DNA of 32,000 nucleotides from Acidothermus cellulolyticus 11B. Lineage in GTDB: Bacteria > Actinomycetota > Actinomycetes > Acidothermales > Acidothermaceae. Under the pieces are notes generated by a model. The model was not told where the DNA came from, did no database searches, and worked only from the letters and a program-made list of their open reading frames with translations. The translations under genes were made by a program, and so were the position numbers. Positions 1,844 through 18,778 of this stretch are shown here, piece by piece. Each line of letters opens with the position of its first letter. The stretch's first letter is position 1. The stretch spans positions 1,290,001 to 1,322,000 of the forward strand of contig NC_008578.1 in assembly GCF_000015025.1 (NCBI RefSeq), read 5' to 3'.

Positions 1844-1858
1844 GCAAACACCCCTCCG

Positions 1859-1896
1859 CCTGCGGGGGCCGGTTCACCCGAACCGGCCCCCGCAGG
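1859..1896. repeat. Perfect 16-bp inverted repeat with a 6-nt loop (hairpin; possible terminator or boundary element)
   Basis: cctgcgggggccggtt (1859-1874), loop cacccg, aaccggcccccgcagg (1881-1896). There is no clear U-tract on either strand, so a terminator role is uncertain. Confidence 0.85.
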
Positions 1897-2420
1897 CATG
1901 TCAGGAACTCCTATGACAGGCCGGCACGGATGACGTGGGGGAGTCGAGGCACCTTGAGCTGTGAGTGAAAGCTGTGTCCTTGCACCGGCGTCACCGAATG
2001 TATGCAATGCGCGCCAATGGACCACCGTTCCGTGAACGGCGAATCGCCTCCACAGATACGACACCGCTTGCCTCGATCGGCTTACAGATTCTTCATAAAT
2101 CCAGCCCGCCACCGCGCGCCACGCGGTAGGCTGACGCCGGCCTGACCGACCAACGGCGCGAAATGGTGCTTCACAAAGGCGAGGGTAGCGATGACTCCTC
2201 GATACTGACCCCGTACGGGCACCGGACGAGGTGGGCGGACGAATGCAAACAAGCCCTGAGCATTCGCTCTTATCGTGAGCAACAAGGCAGAACTGACAAC
2301 TGGTCACCTGGACGGGACGATGCGAGACGCGCGTCGCGGTACGTCTTCGTGATCGGCACCTTTCGAGCGATTCACGGCAGGTCTGGGAAGTAAGAGAGGA
2401 AACTACGGAACGAGGGAACC

Positions 2421-4097
2421 GTGACTACATCTCCTTCAAATGAGATGTCGACACTTGTCAAGCGCCTCACATTGGGGCGAGTCAGACGGTTCTTCACACC
2501 ACCAGAAGAACAGGCATTAGTAGACGGCGCACGCGCTTACTTGACCGGCGACGAGGAGCTCGCCCTTGAGCACCTCGGCAAAGCAGTAAAGCTACCCGAT
2601 GCTGCGTATCTCGCCGGGCTTCTCGCACTCAACAACGCACAATTCGACAATGCCGCCACATGGCTCACCTCAGCCCTCGAACGACACAAGCAACTCGGCC
2701 GGTATTTAGCCAAATATCGCGTGAACGTTACTGTTCTAATCCCAATAGGTAAGCTGGTTGCCGTCCCGATCACACCAAATCAGCGCGGCGTCCTCTTGAG
2801 CCTGGCGGTCCTGTATCGGCAGCGGGAGCAATGGGACGAGGCTATATCACGCGCCGAGAAGCTCCTCGACCTCGACCCTGCAGATATGAGTGCCAGACTT
2901 TGTCTAGCGGATATTTTGTTGGAGGCGCGTCCTTCCACTGAACACAATTTTCGGCGTGTCGTTTCGCTGATCCCTGACCTCGATGAGGTAACTGCGCTAC
3001 ACGGTGCGCTCCTGCTGTGTCGCGCCAGAGCGCTACACAAACTAGGATTACTTGAGGCAGCGCATGACGCGCTAAACGCTATGATTCGACGCAAGGTTAA
3101 CCGACCAACGGAACTTCAACGTGCTCTTCGCTACGAAAGAGCCTGCCTCTATGACAAAATGGGTCAACATCGACGAGCCCGTGTCGAATGGGAGAAGCTC
3201 TATGCGGAGGACCCTGACTACGCTGACGTCGCAGATCGACTGCACGCGACGAATCATCCGGCATCTACGTCTCGCCACGCGAACGGGCGCAAAGCCGAAC
3301 CTCCACCGACGCCTTCATCCCAGGACTCACCGTCGGACATCAGTAATCTCGACACCAGCGGTCGTCGGCACCGAGACGAGGTAACGCACGGAACTACCAT
3401 CCGTAACAATGATCAGTCTTTCGACTTGCCCTCCCACGGTGGCCAGGTGGACGGCTCAACCACAGCTTCGAGGGTGCGACGCACCGATGATGACCACGAC
3501 GGATATCGGATTGAGGTTATGAGTCAAGATGTGACTCCTGACTTTCTCCGTTATATCTATTCTACAGGAAAGGCGGGATGGGATATCGAAACGACCGGTC
3601 TCAACTGGTACGCGGATCGCATTTGCACGGTACAACTCGCGTGCGGAAATCGAGTTGCCGTCGTTCAACTACCCGAAGGTCATACTCCGCAACGACTTTC
3701 ACAAATTCTGGGTGACCAGAACATCCTAAAGATCTTTCACAATGCCCGATTTGACCTACGATTCATGGTATACCACTGGTCAGTAATTCCGCAAAACGTC
3801 GCATGCACACTTGAGCTTGTTCGCTTGCTCAATCCGCGAGAACGGGCGGGTCACACCCTGCGTGAAGTTCTCGAGCGCTATCTCGCCGTCCAGATAATCA
3901 AAGATCAGACATGCTCCGACTGGACGACTGCACAGCTCACACAAGAGCAAATCCGGTACGCTACAAACGATGTTCGCTATCTACCGGTGCTCTTCGACCT
4001 GCTGATGAACATGGCTCGCGAGCGTCGGCTCGAGGAAGCGGCGATGCGCCGATTCCGCCAAATGCTCAAAGACGTCTTCACGTTCAGATATCCCTAA
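2421..4097 (+). CDS. TPR-like repeat protein fused to a DEDDy (RNase D / DNA_pol_A_exo1-type) 3'-5' exonuclease domain
   Basis: From the ORF track; the GTG at 2421 is preceded by GAGGGA (2412-2417). About 290 aa at the N-terminus form helical repeats (LAVLYRQREQWDEAISRAEKLLDLDPAD; ACLYDKMGQHRRARVEWEKLYAEDPDYADVADRL). An S/T/P/D/R-rich linker of about 90 aa follows. The C-terminal about 190 aa carry ExoI WDIETTGL, ExoII IFHNARFDLRF and ExoIII YATNDVRYL. Codon usage is atypical (A/T-ending codons) for this window. Confidence 0.85.
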   Translation: MTTSPSNEMSTLVKRLTLGRVRRFFTPPEEQALVDGARAYLTGDEELALEHLGKAVKLPDAAYLAGLLALNNAQFDNAATWLTSALERHKQLGRYLAKYRVNVTVLIPIGKLVAVPITPNQRGVLLSLAVLYRQREQWDEAISRAEKLLDLDPADMSARLCLADILLEARPSTEHNFRRVVSLIPDLDEVTALHGALLLCRARALHKLGLLEAAHDALNAMIRRKVNRPTELQRALRYERACLYDKMGQHRRARVEWEKLYAEDPDYADVADRLHATNHPASTSRHANGRKAEPPPTPSSQDSPSDISNLDTSGRRHRDEVTHGTTIRNNDQSFDLPSHGGQVDGSTTASRVRRTDDDHDGYRIEVMSQDVTPDFLRYIYSTGKAGWDIETTGLNWYADRICTVQLACGNRVAVVQLPEGHTPQRLSQILGDQNILKIFHNARFDLRFMVYHWSVIPQNVACTLELVRLLNPRERAGHTLREVLERYLAVQIIKDQTCSDWTTAQLTQEQIRYATNDVRYLPVLFDLLMNMARERRLEEAAMRRFRQMLKDVFTFRYP

Positions 4098-4228
4098 CGC
4101 CAAACCTTCGTCGTGGTCGGACCGCCAACCGGCTAACGCCAAGGACGAGTGCACTCGCCACCGCGCCACTAGCGGACCCGGCCGACCGCCAACGACGTAC
4201 GACGCCCCACCACGCGACTGCGCCCCTG

Positions 4229-4313
4229 TGTCCGAGGGGGGACTTGAACCCCCACGCCCTCAACGGGCACTAGCACCTCAAGCTAGCGCGTCTGCCTATT
4301 CCGCCACCCGGAC
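4229..4313 (-). tRNA. tRNA-Leu, anticodon GAG, class II (long variable arm), no encoded CCA
   Basis: I folded it by hand from the reverse complement GTCCGGGTGGCGGAATAGGCAGACGCGCTAGCTTGAGGTGCTAGTGCCCGTTGAGGGCGTGGGGGTTCAAGTCCCCCCTCGGACA. The 7-bp acceptor stem is GTCCGGG/CTCGGAC with one G-U pair. The anticodon stem is CTAGC/GCTAG with loop TTGAGGT. The variable arm is GCCC-GTTGA-GGGC, the T-arm is GGGGG-TTCAAGT-CCCCC, and the discriminator is A. Confidence 0.9.
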
Positions 4314-4639
4314 CTCTCCCCGGCCGGACGTCGGCGTCGCGAAGACCGGCCGACGTGCGGGGATCGGCGTACACGATACCGCATAGTCGAGCAACCCTTC
4401 GCGCGCATACCCGAGCCGCCAGGCAGGAGAGACCCAACGGTACGCCGACTGGAATCGCCGGGTCGCACGAACGGATCATCAGCCGGGCCGGAGCTGGCAG
4501 GAAGGTGGGCATGAATCACGCGGCGCGGACGACCCGGCGCAGCAACCACCCGCCACACCCGTGGCCTCACCAAACGCTCCCGCATGATCGGCTAGGGTAG
4601 GTGAGGCCAGCATAAGCGCGAGAAGACTCTCCGGCGTGG

Positions 4640-4950
4640 CAGCCGGACGGCGGGGGAGACCGGAACACCAGACGAGGCCCGCCGCAGCGCCGGGGAGGCC
4701 GGAACATGGCCGCGCCGGGGGAGCCCGGAGTAGGCGGGTCGGGACAGGACCAGCACAGTCCCGCCAGAGACGCCATGACGCCGGCCCGCCGGAGGACGCC
4801 GTGACGCCGCGGCGCCGCGGAAGCCAAAGCCGCGCCGCCGGCCCGCCGGGGAAGCCGGAGGTCGCCAGCGCAGTCCCGCCGGGGACGCCGCGGCGCCGCG
4901 GAAGCCAAAGCCGGCAAGCCGGCGCCGGTATACCAGAGTGACCGGAACAG
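4640..4950. repeat. Cluster of GC-rich degenerate direct repeats in a roughly 680-nt intergenic region
   Basis: A 29-nt perfect repeat, GACGCCGCGGCGCCGCGGAAGCCAAAGCC, occurs at 4803-4831 and 4884-4912 and contains the 14-nt palindrome CCGCGGCGCCGCGG. CAGTCCCGCC occurs at 4756 and 4871. A CCGGAACA...GGCCCGCC motif occurs near 4650, 4699 and 4944. Confidence 0.8.
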
Positions 4951-4990
4951 GCCCGCCAGAAACCGGGTCAGACCACCAGGGGAGCCGCCG

Positions 4991-6280
4991 ATGACCACCA
5001 CCGCCGAAGCTGAAGTCGTCGACCTCTGCGCCGAGCTCATCCGCATCGACACCTCCAACCCCATCAAGCCGGAGCGGCCGGCAGCCGAGTACGTCGCCGC
5101 CAAACTTGCCGAGGTCGGCCTGACCCCGACGATCCTCGAATCCGAGCCCGGACGGGCCAGTGTCGTCGCGCGCATGCCCGGCGCCGACCCCGGCCGGCCG
5201 GCGCTCCTCATCCACGGACACCTCGACGTCGTCCCCGCCGACCCGGCCGATTGGCAGGTGCACCCGTTCTCCGGGGAAATCAAGGACGGTTACCTGTGGG
5301 GTCGCGGCGCCATCGACATGAAGGACATGGACGCCATGGTCCTGGCCGTCGTCAGGGACCGCATGCGCACACGACGCCCGCCGGCACGGGACGTCGTCCT
5401 GGCCTTCGTCGCCGACGAAGAGGCCGGCGGCGGCAAGGGCGCCCGGTTTCTCGTGGACAATCACCGCGACCTCTTCGACGGGTGCACCGAATCCATCAGC
5501 GAAGTCGGCGGATTCTCCATTGACCTCAATGGAACCCGGCTCTACCCCGTCCAGACCGCCCAGCGCGGCATGACGTGGCTCAAATTGACAGCGACGGGCC
5601 GGGCAGGACACGGAAGTCTGGTCAACGACGCGAATCCGGTCACTGCCCTCGCCGAAACCGTCGCCAGAATCGGCACTTACGACTGGCCGGTCCGCGTCAC
5701 CCCCTGCACCCGCGAATTCCTCACCGCACTCGGCGCCGCACTCGGCGAACCGATAGACCCCGACAATCTCTCTGCCCTCGCCCCCCGTCTCGGTTCGGTC
5801 ACCGCCCTCGTCGCATCGACCCTCCGGAACACCGCCAACCCCACCATGCTCGAAGCCGGTTACAAGGTGAACGTCGTACCGCAAACGGCCAACGCCTACA
5901 TCGACGGCCGCTACCTTCCCGGATATCGCGAGGAATTCCTCACCACCATTGAGAAACTGCTCCATCCGCGGGTCCGATACGAAATCGTCCACGACGACGT
6001 TGCGCTGGAAAATCCCTGGTCCGGTCCGCTCGTCGACGCCATGGTCACCGCACTCACCGCCGAAGACCCGGACGGAAAACCGATTCCGTACTGCCTATTC
6101 GGCGGCACCGACGACAAGTCCTTCTCCCGGCTTGGCATTACCGGATACGGGTTCTCGCCACTTCGGCTTGCACCCGACCTCGATTTCGCCGGCATGTTCC
6201 ACGCCGTTGACGAACGGGTCAACATTGCGGCGCTGCAATTCGGCGTCCGCGTCCTCGACCGGTTCCTCGACCTGTGCTGA
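4991..6280 (+). CDS. M20/M25/M40-family metallopeptidase (ArgE/DapE/CPG2-like)
   Basis: From the ORF track. Motifs seen: LIHGHLDVVP, GRGAIDMKD, VADEEAGG. AGGGGAG lies about 7 nt upstream of the ATG. Third codon positions are strongly G/C-rich. Confidence 0.9.
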   Translation: MTTTAEAEVVDLCAELIRIDTSNPIKPERPAAEYVAAKLAEVGLTPTILESEPGRASVVARMPGADPGRPALLIHGHLDVVPADPADWQVHPFSGEIKDGYLWGRGAIDMKDMDAMVLAVVRDRMRTRRPPARDVVLAFVADEEAGGGKGARFLVDNHRDLFDGCTESISEVGGFSIDLNGTRLYPVQTAQRGMTWLKLTATGRAGHGSLVNDANPVTALAETVARIGTYDWPVRVTPCTREFLTALGAALGEPIDPDNLSALAPRLGSVTALVASTLRNTANPTMLEAGYKVNVVPQTANAYIDGRYLPGYREEFLTTIEKLLHPRVRYEIVHDDVALENPWSGPLVDAMVTALTAEDPDGKPIPYCLFGGTDDKSFSRLGITGYGFSPLRLAPDLDFAGMFHAVDERVNIAALQFGVRVLDRFLDLC

Positions 6281-6527
6281 CCGCGTGGCGCCGAGCCAGT
6301 CCGCCGCCGGATCTCACGGGTCCGACAGCGGACGTTGCGGATGCGGCGTTATGCCGCTGAACGAGACCCAAGCCTCCACCGGATCCCACGGCTGTGACAG
6401 GCCGCGCGCGAGCGCAAGGCGCCGCAGCCTCCCATGCCGGCAAACGCACGCTGCCGACCGTCCCCAAGCGGCAAACGACTCGCGCCGGACGCCGCCGGCC
6501 GATACCGTGTACTCCGTGACCGACGAC

Positions 6528-6824
6528 ATGCCGGTGAGCCCTGCGGACGTCCGGTCCGCCGCGGAAGCGCTGAAAGCCGCCATCGACACCCACCTCGCCG
6601 CCGTCGAGAACCGGTCCGGCGAGAACGACCCACGGGTCCAGCAGGCGTACGACGCATTAGCCGCGGCAGCCGAAACGTACGACGACCTGCTCTTCTCGGC
6701 GTACGAGGAAGTCACCCCGTTCGGGCCGTCCGACGTCGACGAGGACGATGACGAAGACGACGTTGACGAGGACGACGACGCCGGGTTCGGCGACGACCTC
6801 GAATGGGAACCGGACAGCCGCTGA
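6528..6824 (+). CDS. Small, highly acidic hypothetical protein (C-terminal D/E tract)
   Basis: This is the C-terminal part of track ORF 5949..6824. The upstream part of that ORF overlaps the M20 gene and is R/S/T-rich junk. From the ATG at 6528 the sequence reads MPVSPADVRSAAEALKAAIDTHLAAVENRSGENDPRVQQAYDALAAAAETYDDLLFSAYEEVTPFGPSDVDEDDDEDDVDEDDDAGFGDDLEWEPDSR. GC3 is high. In-frame GTGs at 6507 and 6516 are alternative starts. Confidence 0.5.
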   Translation: MPVSPADVRSAAEALKAAIDTHLAAVENRSGENDPRVQQAYDALAAAAETYDDLLFSAYEEVTPFGPSDVDEDDDEDDVDEDDDAGFGDDLEWEPDSR

Positions 6825-6922: not shown

Positions 6923-8074
6923 CTATCCGTCGGCTGTCAGCTGCGTCAACCGTTGGTCGGCTGTCAGCTGCGTCAACCGCTCCCGAAGCGTCGTCCGGCG
7001 CGGCCGGGTCGCAATACTGCGAACGGCCCCGGCAAGAGCCGTTCCGACTCCGTGCACGATCGACACGTGCCGCTCGGCGCGGCTGAGCGCCGTGTACACC
7101 AGTTGCCGGGTCAACACCCCTGCACACTCCGGCGAGAACACCACGACCACCGCCGGCCAGCGATAACCCACGGCCTCGTGGATGGTCCGTGGCGCCGGCG
7201 CGCCGACGGTGGCGACGGCATCCCGCAACGCGAGCACCCCGCCCGGCCCTCGGCGCAACGGGCAGAGCACCTGAATCTCCGCGGGTGGAATGCCGAACGC
7301 CCGGGGAATCGACGTCGCCAACAGCTGCGAGACCCGATGTACCGCCTCGGCGGCATTCGCCACCGGGACCACGACAACCTGACGGTCCGGATCCTCGATC
7401 CGCGGCAGCTCGCCGCGGCGAATTCCGGCCAGCAACTGCGCCAGTGCTCCGGCACCGTCGTCCGGCACGTCATATCGCGGAATCCCGTCAACAGCAAGCA
7501 AACTCGCGAACACGTCGCCAGGCCCGGGGGAGCCCAACTCGTCCGGATCACCGGCGAGGACGACCATCTCGTCCGTCCCGCAGCTCTCGAAGAATGCGGC
7601 AAAGGCTTCAACATCCAGGGACTGCGCGTCGTCCGCCACCGCGGCGCCATCCCCGCCGACCTGCGTCACCAGATCGTCACGCCGCTCACCGGCAGGTCCG
7701 GCGACGAGAGCGATCCGGCCGCCCGCCATCCGGGTAGCCACCGCCCGAGCAATGCGATCCTCGGCGTCCAGCAAGCGACGCAACCCAAGCCGCGTCCCGG
7801 CGAAAACCGCGACATCCGCCCTGGCACCCTCAAGCGCGTCGTCACACTCGACGCCCCGGCCGGCGAGGGCAGCCCGAACCACAGTGAGCGGAACGACCGT
7901 GTGACCGTCCCGGGCGGCGGTTTCGAGCAAACCCAGCAGGACGGCCGCTGCCGCATTCTCCTCGTCGCGGCTCACTCCACCGACCCGAGGAGAGCCCGGC
8001 CCCGGCAACCCGCCGCCGCCCACCGCGTCCATCGCCGGGCCGCCGGCCGGCACAGCAACACCATCCGAGAGCAT
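6923..8074 (-). CDS. RecD2-like helicase-fold protein with degenerate ATPase motifs
   Basis: From the ORF track. The helicase motif III-like sequence is VVLAGDPDELGSPGPGDVF (compare GDxDQLPSVGxGxV). The motif VI/UvrD_C-like sequence is LVYTALSRAERHVSIV. The position expected for Walker A reads LVAGPAGERRDDL, with no GK[ST]. The Walker B position reads DDAQSLD, with no DE. The start lies 8 nt downstream of the AKR stop. Confidence 0.65.
   Translation of the reverse strand: MLSDGVAVPAGGPAMDAVGGGGLPGPGSPRVGGVSRDEENAAAAVLLGLLETAARDGHTVVPLTVVRAALAGRGVECDDALEGARADVAVFAGTRLGLRRLLDAEDRIARAVATRMAGGRIALVAGPAGERRDDLVTQVGGDGAAVADDAQSLDVEAFAAFFESCGTDEMVVLAGDPDELGSPGPGDVFASLLAVDGIPRYDVPDDGAGALAQLLAGIRRGELPRIEDPDRQVVVVPVANAAEAVHRVSQLLATSIPRAFGIPPAEIQVLCPLRRGPGGVLALRDAVATVGAPAPRTIHEAVGYRWPAVVVVFSPECAGVLTRQLVYTALSRAERHVSIVHGVGTALAGAVRSIATRPRRTTLRERLTQLTADQRLTQLTADG
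6929..6979. repeat. In-frame tandem duplication with a 27-nt period at the 3' end of the RecD2-like gene
   Basis: GTCGGCTGTCAGCTGCGTCAACCG occurs at 6929-6952 and 6956-6979. It encodes RLTQLTADQ / RLTQLTADG at the C-terminus. Confidence 0.9.
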
Positions 8075-18130: not shown

Positions 18131-18778
18131 TCACCGGTCCCGGGCGAGAGTCGCGTTGTACCGGGTCAGCACGGCACGGACGAGCAGGTGCCCGACCGGC
18201 GTGTCAAGGTCGACACATGTTCCGGTGACCGACAGGAAAGGACATTCGCTGACCTCGGGCGGAGCGAAGAAGACATAGGCGAATTCGTCCTCATCGTGCC
18301 GGCATCGGTAGACGAAACCCACGGCCTGCGGTGCCCACCGGCGGATCGCCGCCGCCCAACGGCGGGTCAGCGGGTAATCCCGGGCCTCACATTTCGTCAG
18401 CCAGGTGTCCTGGCCGACAGCCGCGAGCCCTGGTCCGTGGAGGGCGACCAACCGAAGCGCTCGGTTCACCTGGAGCTCGCTCAATCGGCGATGGGCAAGC
18501 GCTGACCGGGGGAGCAGCCGCGGCGTGCCGTCGAGCGGCAGGTCCCGGGTGAGCGTCTCCGCAACAGCGGCTTGGACACTGCCTCCGGCGTACAGGTACG
18601 CGCAGCTTCCGTCGAGGCTGTCGAAGCGGCCGCCGCTCGAGGCGTGCGGACGTGGGGTGGAGTTCATGGTGGTCGCTGCCCGGTGCGCCGCATGCACCCG
18701 CCAAAGCCGCGTGCCGCGCCGAATCGTGATGAACCGTAGCGGGCCCGGACACTGATCCGGCGGCGCCCGGCGTGACAC
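18131..18778 (-). CDS. RES-domain toxin (NAD+-targeting family)
   Basis: From the ORF track. It has GGRFD (the Arg motif), AYLYAGGSVQAAVAETL (the Glu motif) and GFVYRCRHDEDEFAYVFF (the Ser-motif region, where a Cys appears to replace the Ser). The GTG lies 5 nt after the antitoxin stop, and GGAGGAG lies inside the antitoxin 3' end. Confidence 0.8.
   Translation of the reverse strand: MSRRAPPDQCPGPLRFITIRRGTRLWRVHAAHRAATTMNSTPRPHASSGGRFDSLDGSCAYLYAGGSVQAAVAETLTRDLPLDGTPRLLPRSALAHRRLSELQVNRALRLVALHGPGLAAVGQDTWLTKCEARDYPLTRRWAAAIRRWAPQAVGFVYRCRHDEDEFAYVFFAPPEVSECPFLSVTGTCVDLDTPVGHLLVRAVLTRYNATLARDR

Follow-up and report, generated by a model that had tools for sequence, protein, structure and literature searches.

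A complete TPR module joined to a diDNase-like DEDDy exonuclease in a foreign single-gene islet of Acidothermus cellulolyticus

We analyzed a 32,000-nt stretch of the Acidothermus cellulolyticus 11B genome (NC_008578.1, positions 1,290,001 to 1,322,000 of the forward strand), which is referred to here as the window and is numbered from its first nucleotide. The gene of interest, on the forward strand at 2421..4097, is an open reading frame (ORF) for a 558-aa protein (WP_148204555.1 / ABK52936.1 / UniProt A0LU26, A0LU26_ACIC1) in which tetratricopeptide repeats (TPR) are joined to a nuclease, and which is labeled in the databases as just "hypothetical protein" or "3'-5' exonuclease." Its GTG start codon at 2421 is preceded, after a 4-nt spacer, by a Shine-Dalgarno (SD) motif (GAGGG, 2412-2416), the two together spanning 2412..2423 (+), while the GenBank entry ABK52936.1 begins instead at an ATG at 2445 (Met9). 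Three parts follow one another from the N to the C terminus: aa 5-278 form a TPR superhelix, aa 283-349 are a disordered linker, and aa 352-555 make up a complete DEDDy 3'-5' exonuclease.

This architecture, a single polypeptide combining a TPR domain with a complete DEDDy exonuclease, had been proposed in an earlier, sequence-only reading of the same DNA, and the 558-aa ORF, Pfam, and structure prediction all agree on it. The exonuclease model PF01612 matches aa 377-531 (E 1.2e-26, 94 bits vs. a cutoff of 23.6), TPR models match aa 118-170 and 237-270, and the HRDC domain, which the same reading had named as the usual companion of this domain in canonical RNase D, is not matched by Pfam anywhere in the protein. 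The catalytic motifs that had been listed (WDIETTGL, HNARFD, and YATNDVRYL) are all present. An AlphaFold2 model, built from a checked alignment (A3), has a mean predicted local distance difference test (pLDDT) score of 84, with values above 90 in both domains and below 50 in aa 283-349. It shows helical repeats in aa 5-278 and an α/β exonuclease fold in aa 352-555. An alternative alignment of 132 sequences (A2), in which the TPR family was misaligned onto the exonuclease domain, was dropped for structure prediction.

The architecture is effectively unique. In an exhaustive HMMER scan of 1.84 billion cluster representatives, both halves were matched by the query's own cluster alone (1191 bits); the next match (224 bits) was confined to the TPR part, and every other match covered either aa ~14-275 or aa ~364-547. 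The query's cluster has eight members, all from A. cellulolyticus or from Logan/metagenome assemblies of A. cellulolyticus, which represent two haplotypes, and a word-indexed search of 5.8 billion proteins yielded one full-length relative besides the query (P0001, 96% identity). Since the ORF is open without interruption in every variant recovered (the two haplotypes are ~96% identical, with no indel), the feature is real and not an artifact of assembly. The literature is silent as well. None of the accession numbers of the fusion protein is cited in the literature searched, and Acidothermus does not appear in the supplements of the paper on diDNases, the DEDDy dinucleases that are specific for deoxydinucleotides and occur in Actinomycetes and Clostridia (Mortensen et al., NAR 2025, PMC11706625; Protein Data Bank [PDB] 9F7G and 9F7D). 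TPR or natural fusions go unmentioned in both diDNase papers and in the preprint on ApeA. The view that this is an undescribed architecture thus stands. Confined to A. cellulolyticus, it is neither widespread nor of native composition, so it is not a common housekeeping variant of RNase D, and its N-terminal domain is a TPR domain of an uncharacterized family.

That family can be named. The TPR superhelix (2433..3254, +; aa 5-278) has some 6-7 repeats and a β-hairpin insert at aa 105-117. Residues 14-277 can be aligned (38-50% identity) from one end to the other with the complete C-terminal TPR module of a family of ~345-aa proteins (HMMER E values down to 2e-61) that consist of an N-terminal DUF4236 head (PF14020, ~55 aa) and a TPR module of ~265 aa. 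The alignment reaches the natural C terminus of these DUF4236+TPR proteins ("...DVAxRLGL*"), and the 36 invariant columns of the family are all kept in the fusion protein (A1 alignment, 38-48% identity; e.g., LRYER and YAED..DV..RL). The earlier prediction of a TPR array was therefore right as to the nature of the repeats; what it took for an anonymous array is the complete, headless TPR module of the DUF4236+TPR family. Its nearest folds in Foldseek searches are consensus TPR proteins and the corresponding domains of ATPases from type VII secretion (EccA5, EccA1, and EccA3; TM scores of 0.63-0.73 for EccA5/EccA1).

The DUF4236+TPR proteins, which are uncharacterized and come from Planctomycetota, Desulfobacterota, and other metagenome-assembled genomes, share the TPR module with all its invariant residues; unlike the fusion, they carry the head and a spacer, and they have a stop codon where the fusion continues into linker and nuclease. 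They are encoded by standalone genes in variable contexts with no nuclease neighbor. An origin by fusion of an operon was rejected, the relatives of the TPR half not being adjacent to exonuclease genes. The PF14020 head was not found by Pfam in the fusion protein, the family alignment beginning past it. A decayed head upstream of the start codon was also considered: a tblastn alignment of the family member P0010 ran in frame as far as 2256. However, the family hidden Markov model (HMM), applied to a six-frame translation of the upstream leader, detected no remnant, scoring 2.1 bits against 0.8 +/- 1.7 for shuffled sequences, 54 of 300 of which equaled it; this extension is therefore an alignment artifact. 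As a separate observation, two members of the family, P0196 (755 aa) and P0200 (466 aa), have C-terminal extensions of ~410 and ~105 aa, respectively, past the TPR module, with no Pfam domain, so that in proteins of this kind the module may be joined to other unidentified C-terminal parts.

The linker (3267..3467, +; aa 283-349) is disordered and rich in Ser, Thr, Arg, Asp, and Pro, with ~70-85 aa lying between the two folds. The segment has no homologues and no codon-position GC signature. A stop-free linker of this length arises by chance in ~10% of shuffles; the linker is open in every copy.

The exonuclease half (3474..4094, +; aa 352-558) has a different ancestry, and since the two halves descend separately the protein is a chimera of two unrelated families. 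The nuclease had been read as a generic domain of the RNase D / WRN-exo / Pol-A-exo type, an assignment that did not hold. Its closest relatives, by sequence and by structure, are instead NrnC (NanoRNase C) and the diDNases. Sequence matches in the PDB are led by the Nocardioides diDNase 9f7g (E 1.1e-38), followed by a reconstructed "ancestor of diDNase" (2.5e-37), NrnC (7mpl, 1.8e-24), and E. coli RNase D (1yt3, 2.5e-7). The best structural match is also 9f7g, in which the enzyme is bound to deoxy-pGG (TM score 0.89, RMSD 2.1 Å), with a Rhodococcus diDNase and NrnC next; Foldseek TM scores range from 0.84 to 0.89 across NrnC/diDNase structures and from 0.84 to 0.86 for NrnC. The best 120 homologues of the exonuclease are all standalone proteins of 176-246 aa with the diDNase signature FHHAxFDLRF and a terminal Tyr. 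As judged from these comparisons, the domain belongs to the NrnC/diDNase dinuclease clade and is not RNase D-like.

We scored conservation of the active site over 112 standalone relatives and checked the mapping against the chain numbering of 9f7g, which is consistently offset by +1. The catalytic machinery is intact. The five catalytic residues (D388, E390, D445, Y513, and D517) fall in columns that are invariant in 112/112 relatives. The same holds for Thr31, His80, Phe84, Phe88, and Lys135 in diDNase numbering, with the Leu wedge (111/112) and Ser140 (110/112) close behind, and the fusion protein matches at all of these positions. The ExoI motif (WDIETTGL; 3579..3602, +) supplies D388 and E390, together with the residues that bind the 3' nucleotide, T391 (Thr31) and the Leu wedge L394, all conserved. 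The ExoII motif (HNARFDLRF; 3738..3764, +) keeps H440 (His80), F444 (Phe84), D445, and F448 (Phe88), and the ExoIII motif (YATNDV; 3957..3974, +) contains Y513 and D517. The substrate loop K135-S140 is kept as K494-S499.

The cap that closes the pocket around the 5'-phosphate, and thereby restricts substrates to dinucleotides, is on the other hand uniquely altered. In diDNases, Lys104 forms a salt bridge with the 5'-phosphate and belongs to this cap together with His80 and Ser120, His81 contacts the 5' deoxyribose, Phe88 acts as a buttress, and the Leu wedge and Thr coordinate the 3' nucleotide (PMC11706625). The chain-terminal aromatic residue, Tyr in diDNases and His in NrnC, is provided in trans by the partner protomer (PMC11706625). 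In the fusion protein, Lys104, which is Lys or Arg in 112/112 relatives, is replaced by Leu464 (3810..3812, +). His81, which is His or Tyr in 112/112, is replaced by Asn441, so that the diDNase consensus HHAxFD(L/I)xF reads HNARFDLRF, with Phe88 present. Ser120 is replaced by T479. The C-terminal tail (DVFTFRYP plus stop; 4071..4097, +) is remodeled: the position of the terminal Tyr206 (Tyr or His in 112/112) is occupied by Phe555, followed by the extra residues RYP, which place Tyr557 two residues further on. Because a 10-residue deletion takes out the conserved LPTRVxLD segment, the tail past the ExoIII Asp has 41 residues, whereas it has at least 48 in all 112 relatives. Altered and retained residues are identical in both haplotypes. 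Since Lys104, His81, and the trans-acting C-terminal Tyr tail are all altered, we infer a probable change in substrate gating, which would affect the limit on length or else the requirement for a 5'-phosphate.

Comparison of the two haplotypes bears on whether the gene is maintained. Over 1916-4210, haplotype L001 differs from the window at 95 positions, with no indel in the ORF and no stop codon in either haplotype. Between them, the ratio of nonsynonymous to synonymous substitution rates (dN/dS) comes to 0.14 in the exonuclease (Fisher p=6e-7) and to 0.25 in the TPR domain (p=0.002); each of the folded domains is thus being maintained by selection. For the linker, dN/dS is 0.60 (p=0.33), and its divergence (5.6%) is close to that of the upstream noncoding DNA (5.2%), making it near-neutral.

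The composition of the gene sets it apart from its surroundings. It lies in a low-GC patch (~1900-4150) where GC content is 0.50-0.62, compared with ~0.70 in the flanks, and its GC content at third codon positions (GC3) is 0.56, vs. 0.79-0.88 in every native gene of the window. The fusion gene is therefore foreign, in line with the horizontal acquisition suggested earlier. GC3 is nearly the same in the TPR part (0.550) and the exonuclease part (0.549), which suggests that both halves would have arrived together from a single donor of moderate GC. The result is a foreign single-gene islet of ~2.2 kb in a core region beside a tRNA-Leu gene, with no defense island.

The left edge of the patch coincides with an inverted repeat (1858..1897; perfect 18-bp arms and a 4-nt loop), just past which GC content falls from 0.72 to 0.60. 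The native gene upstream probably terminates at this hairpin, which delimits the islet on its left side. On the right, the patch ends at the stop codon of the fusion gene, 130 nt from the 3' end of tRNA-Leu(GAG) (4228..4313, -), which points toward the islet. The tRNA side is ancestral, since the order tRNA-Leu / M20 peptidase is conserved across actinomycetes. Between hairpin and gene lies a 520-nt leader (1900..2420, +; GC 0.60) within the foreign patch, in which we found no convincing gene, Rfam element or riboswitch, sigma-70 consensus promoter, or terminator. A 76-codon ORF within it (2163-2393, +) is in frame with the fusion gene, its TAA preceding the GTG by 27 nt; no homology was detected for it, and the HMM found no DUF4236 remnant in it.

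No integrase, att-like direct repeats of the tRNA 3' end, or common flanking repeat family were found at the islet. In an empty-site comparison, the nearest reference genome was 72% identical in the M20 peptidase and had no synteny upstream of the tRNA, and a metagenome match to the boundary hairpin (L099) proved to be another occupied site, at 99.4% identity. A phage origin was rejected: the gene is absent from viral contigs, PHROG contains nothing that matches the TPR module, and BFVD returns only generic Pol-A exonuclease and TPR folds. Separately, many independent Logan assemblies of the locus (contigs L091, L002, L093, L094, and L001) break at ~1916-2157, within the leader, and L001 also stops at 4210, before the tRNA; these breaks may reflect strain heterogeneity at the islet boundaries.

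The neighboring genes encode an M20 peptidase, a UvrD-C-like protein, an aldo-keto reductase, MshC, PAC2, MetH, MacB, Mpa, and the Pup ligase. A defense-island context was consequently rejected, these neighbors being core housekeeping genes and the sole toxin-like gene lying ~14 kb away. The latter (18131-18778, -), in a slightly lower-GC stretch, codes for a protein with a RES domain (PF08808, E 2.9e-21), which is the toxin component in toxin-antitoxin pairs of the RES-Xre type. The UvrD-C-like protein (6923-8074, -; 383 aa) has only the C-terminal domain of a UvrD-like helicase (PF13538, E 3.9e-7), with weak RecD-like / PDC-S68 similarity in PADLOC, and its gene appears to be truncated or degenerate. 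Two sets of repeats were also seen. Between tRNA-Leu and the M20 peptidase gene, 677 nt (4314-4990, GC 0.73) contain degenerate direct repeats, including a perfect 30-nt pair (4803-4832 / 4884-4913) and 25-nt units spaced irregularly at 31-125 nt start to start, with no match in the left flank. Upstream of the islet, two direct repeats of 50 nt (678-727 / 767-816), 96% identical and 89 nt apart, precede a gene at 919-1596 whose product is low-complexity and Ser/Pro/Thr/Glu-rich, with an N-terminal hydrophobic segment and no Pfam match.

Among described systems, the diDNases come closest. Like the fusion, they have the DEDDy set, the Leu wedge, Thr31, His80, Phe84, the diDNase-defining Phe88, and the substrate loop, and they share with it a patchy occurrence through horizontal transfer, in a genomic islet of an actinomycete. 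They differ in being standalone proteins of ~200 aa, whereas the fusion carries 350 aa of N-terminal TPR and linker, and in having Lys104, His81, Ser120, and the full Tyr tail in place of Leu, Asn, Thr, and a shortened, remodeled tail. They are dimeric DEDDy enzymes that hydrolyze 5'-phosphorylated DNA dinucleotides only; their genes associate with mobile elements and defense systems, near which they are enriched, and 97% of the described loci adjoin an HTH (helix-turn-helix) gene that is conserved, or HipA and HIRAN genes (PMC11706625). In addition, deoxydinucleotides activate the defense nuclease Ec2ApeA, and a diDNase relieves this activation (10.64898/2026.01.26.701840). NrnC (PDB 7MPL and 7MPR) shares the fold, the active-site logic of a dinuclease, and the Arg of EXOII (xARFD). 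In contrast to the fusion, which has Phe88 and groups with proteins bearing the diDNase signature, it is octameric, with a C-terminal His and no Phe88, and is a weaker match (E 1e-24).

A DEDD exonuclease fused to TPR has a precedent in B. subtilis, where the DEDDh exonuclease MrfB (YprB) ends in a TPR domain whose removal cuts activity about tenfold (PMC11194089). Like the fusion, MrfB is a bacterial 3'-5' exonuclease of the DnaQ superfamily with TPR in one polypeptide, and it offers a precedent for modulation of an exonuclease by TPR. It is nonetheless of the DEDDh type, has the reversed domain order and three TPR repeats, acts together with the helicase MrfA in repair after mitomycin C, and is not a dinuclease; nothing points to homology with MrfB beyond the superfamily.

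The standalone exonucleases closest to the nuclease half sit in mobile-element contexts, with a TrwC relaxase (L097), IS21, a resolvase, and ParA nearby. In two of them, P0020 and P0034 (L096:321-1172 with 1182-1808; L097/L098:5211-5987 with 6001-6624), another gene lies 10-14 bp upstream. Its product is conserved, with 258-283 aa and 60% identity from one locus to the other (E 3e-109), and has no Pfam domain, only a weak PLDc_2 similarity (E 0.059), and two hydrophobic N-terminal segments that resemble transmembrane helices when judged by eye from the sequence. This protein may represent a third diDNase partner architecture, besides HTH and HipA/HIRAN (PMC11706625). As a candidate for an upstream partner that became fused, it was rejected, being unrelated to the TPR module (E 0.36 and 2.4).

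The reading we favor, to which we give about an even chance of being right, is that the protein is a TPR-tethered derivative of a diDNase, with intact catalysis and changed substrate gating, encoded by a foreign single-gene islet. On this view the enzyme would degrade short substrates, probably DNA, as an Mg2+-dependent 3'-5' exonuclease, and would differ from strict deoxydinucleotidases in how it gates substrate length or the 5'-phosphate. The TPR domain may tether or regulate the nuclease via a protein or peptide partner, or through self-assembly. By analogy with the family, its role would most likely be the one suspected for diDNases in general, namely to turn over deoxydinucleotides or short pieces of DNA where mobile elements, phages, and host defense come into conflict. 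The link to immunity is made by family analogy only, because the neighborhood has no defense or mobile genes and no HTH or HipA/HIRAN gene is adjacent.

Several points weigh against this reading. No defense system was found in the window, where PADLOC matches amount to generic AAA or permease similarities, and there are no mobile-element genes in the neighborhood of the fusion gene. The typical diDNase partners, HTH or HipA/HIRAN, are not adjacent, the 520-nt leader containing no credible ORF and the downstream side being occupied by tRNA-Leu and the M20 peptidase. The selection estimate comes from 60 substitutions between two haplotypes. The diDNase active site is completed only in the dimer (PMC11706625). 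Finally, the fusion protein still has His80, Phe84, Phe88, Thr31, the Leu wedge, and the loop K135-S140, and a Tyr (Tyr557) is only two residues from the aligned position, so that, going by these residues, strict dinuclease activity might survive in it.

This last point leads to the alternative that fares best, although we consider it somewhat unlikely: the protein would still be a strict deoxydinucleotide hydrolase, to which the TPR domain adds localization, stability, or regulation, the cap changes being compensated (e.g., by Arg468 or Tyr557). Conservation of the DEDDy residues along with those just listed (the loop as K494-S499) is in its favor, as is the fact that the nearest structure is that of a diDNase, and swaps of H81 and Y206 in diDNaseNoc left its DNA preference standing (PMC11706625). 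It has to accommodate, however, the Leu in place of the Lys104 that forms the 5'-phosphate salt bridge, as well as a trans-acting Tyr tail shorter than in all relatives, from which LPTRVxLD is deleted.

A more doubtful possibility takes the altered cap further and makes the protein a partner-targeted nuclease, i.e., a diDNase core without its dinucleotide-restricting 5'-phosphate cap that acts on longer 3' ends. The TPR domain would then bring it to a specific protein or nucleoprotein target, or hold it in check pending the binding of a ligand. If true, this would be a natural experiment in turning a dinucleotide scavenger into a targeted effector or anti-defense factor, and the DUF4236+TPR family would gain a connection with nucleic-acid conflict systems.

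It is conceivable, if improbable, that the gene is an evolutionary accident, a recent and effectively neutral chimera in decay without biological function. It is found in a single species; no partner gene, mobility gene, or recognizable promoter was found with it; several otherwise invariant residues of the family have been lost; and the linker is near-neutral and could be stop-free by chance. Against this, purifying selection on both folded domains is significant, neither haplotype nor any metagenomic copy has a broken ORF, the catalytic residues and the invariant residues of the TPR family are all kept, and AlphaFold2 confidence is above 90 in both domains.

Production of two proteins, the full-length fusion and a standalone exonuclease, had also been envisaged, through an internal ATG (Met367; 3519..3521, +) placed 2 nt after GAGG at 3513-3516. 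These coordinates are correct, the ATG is kept in both haplotypes, and a start at Met367 leaves 21 residues ahead of the ExoI Asp, which equals the family minimum. Nevertheless, the median in the family is 30 residues, only 2 nt separate the SD motif from the ATG, Met367 falls midway along the first β-strand of the exonuclease (aa 363-368), and the alignment with 9f7g begins at query residue 364. The idea is thus weak, and we regard a second product as distinctly improbable.

The sequence-only reading had further inferred a sensor-plus-nuclease of the Avs/STAND type, a single-gene anti-phage module with the TPR domain as the sensor of a phage protein and the nuclease as effector. TPR arrays are sensors in some defense systems, and the effectors of Avs/STAND proteins are Mrr/PD-(D/E)xK or HNH-type endonucleases. 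Avs/STAND NTPases likewise combine a TPR array and a nuclease in one protein, the exonuclease domain matches the C-terminal exonuclease region of BrxHI in PADLOC, and the diDNase family is enriched near defense systems and mobile elements. The analogy fails because no NTPase is present: neither it nor any other switch domain was found by Pfam, NCBIfam, PADLOC, or in the structure model. Moreover, the nuclease is a DEDDy exonuclease of dinuclease type, ill suited as an effector of abortive infection, PADLOC matches concern exonuclease domains only, the gene sits in a pupylation / MshC / MetH core region with no defense genes within ~14 kb, and the contexts of the TPR family are variable and not defense-linked. 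Such a module is very unlikely. The notion of a housekeeping RNase D-like enzyme for RNA/tRNA 3' ends is hardly tenable, because the generic PF01612 match shared with E. coli Rnd (1YT3), the adjacent tRNA gene, and the sub-threshold hit to the RNase D model TIGR01388 (62 bits vs. a cutoff of 299; PRK10829, 45 vs. 516) are set against the lack of HRDC, a match to 1yt3 (E 2.5e-7) much weaker than those to diDNase and NrnC, the foreign composition, and the single-species distribution.

The general significance of the fusion is limited, because the gene is a single-species orphan with no informative neighbors. Its interest lies in the family to which the nuclease half is assigned. The diDNases were described only in 2025, and deoxydinucleotides have newly been reported as activators of ApeA anti-phage defense. 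Among 1.84 billion representatives, the fusion is the sole member of the clade that carries a second domain, and the changes in its substrate-length cap are unique to it. It offers a test case for which residues enforce dinucleotide specificity and for whether diDNases act through protein partners. For the DUF4236-family TPR module, the association with a nuclease provides a first functional lead.

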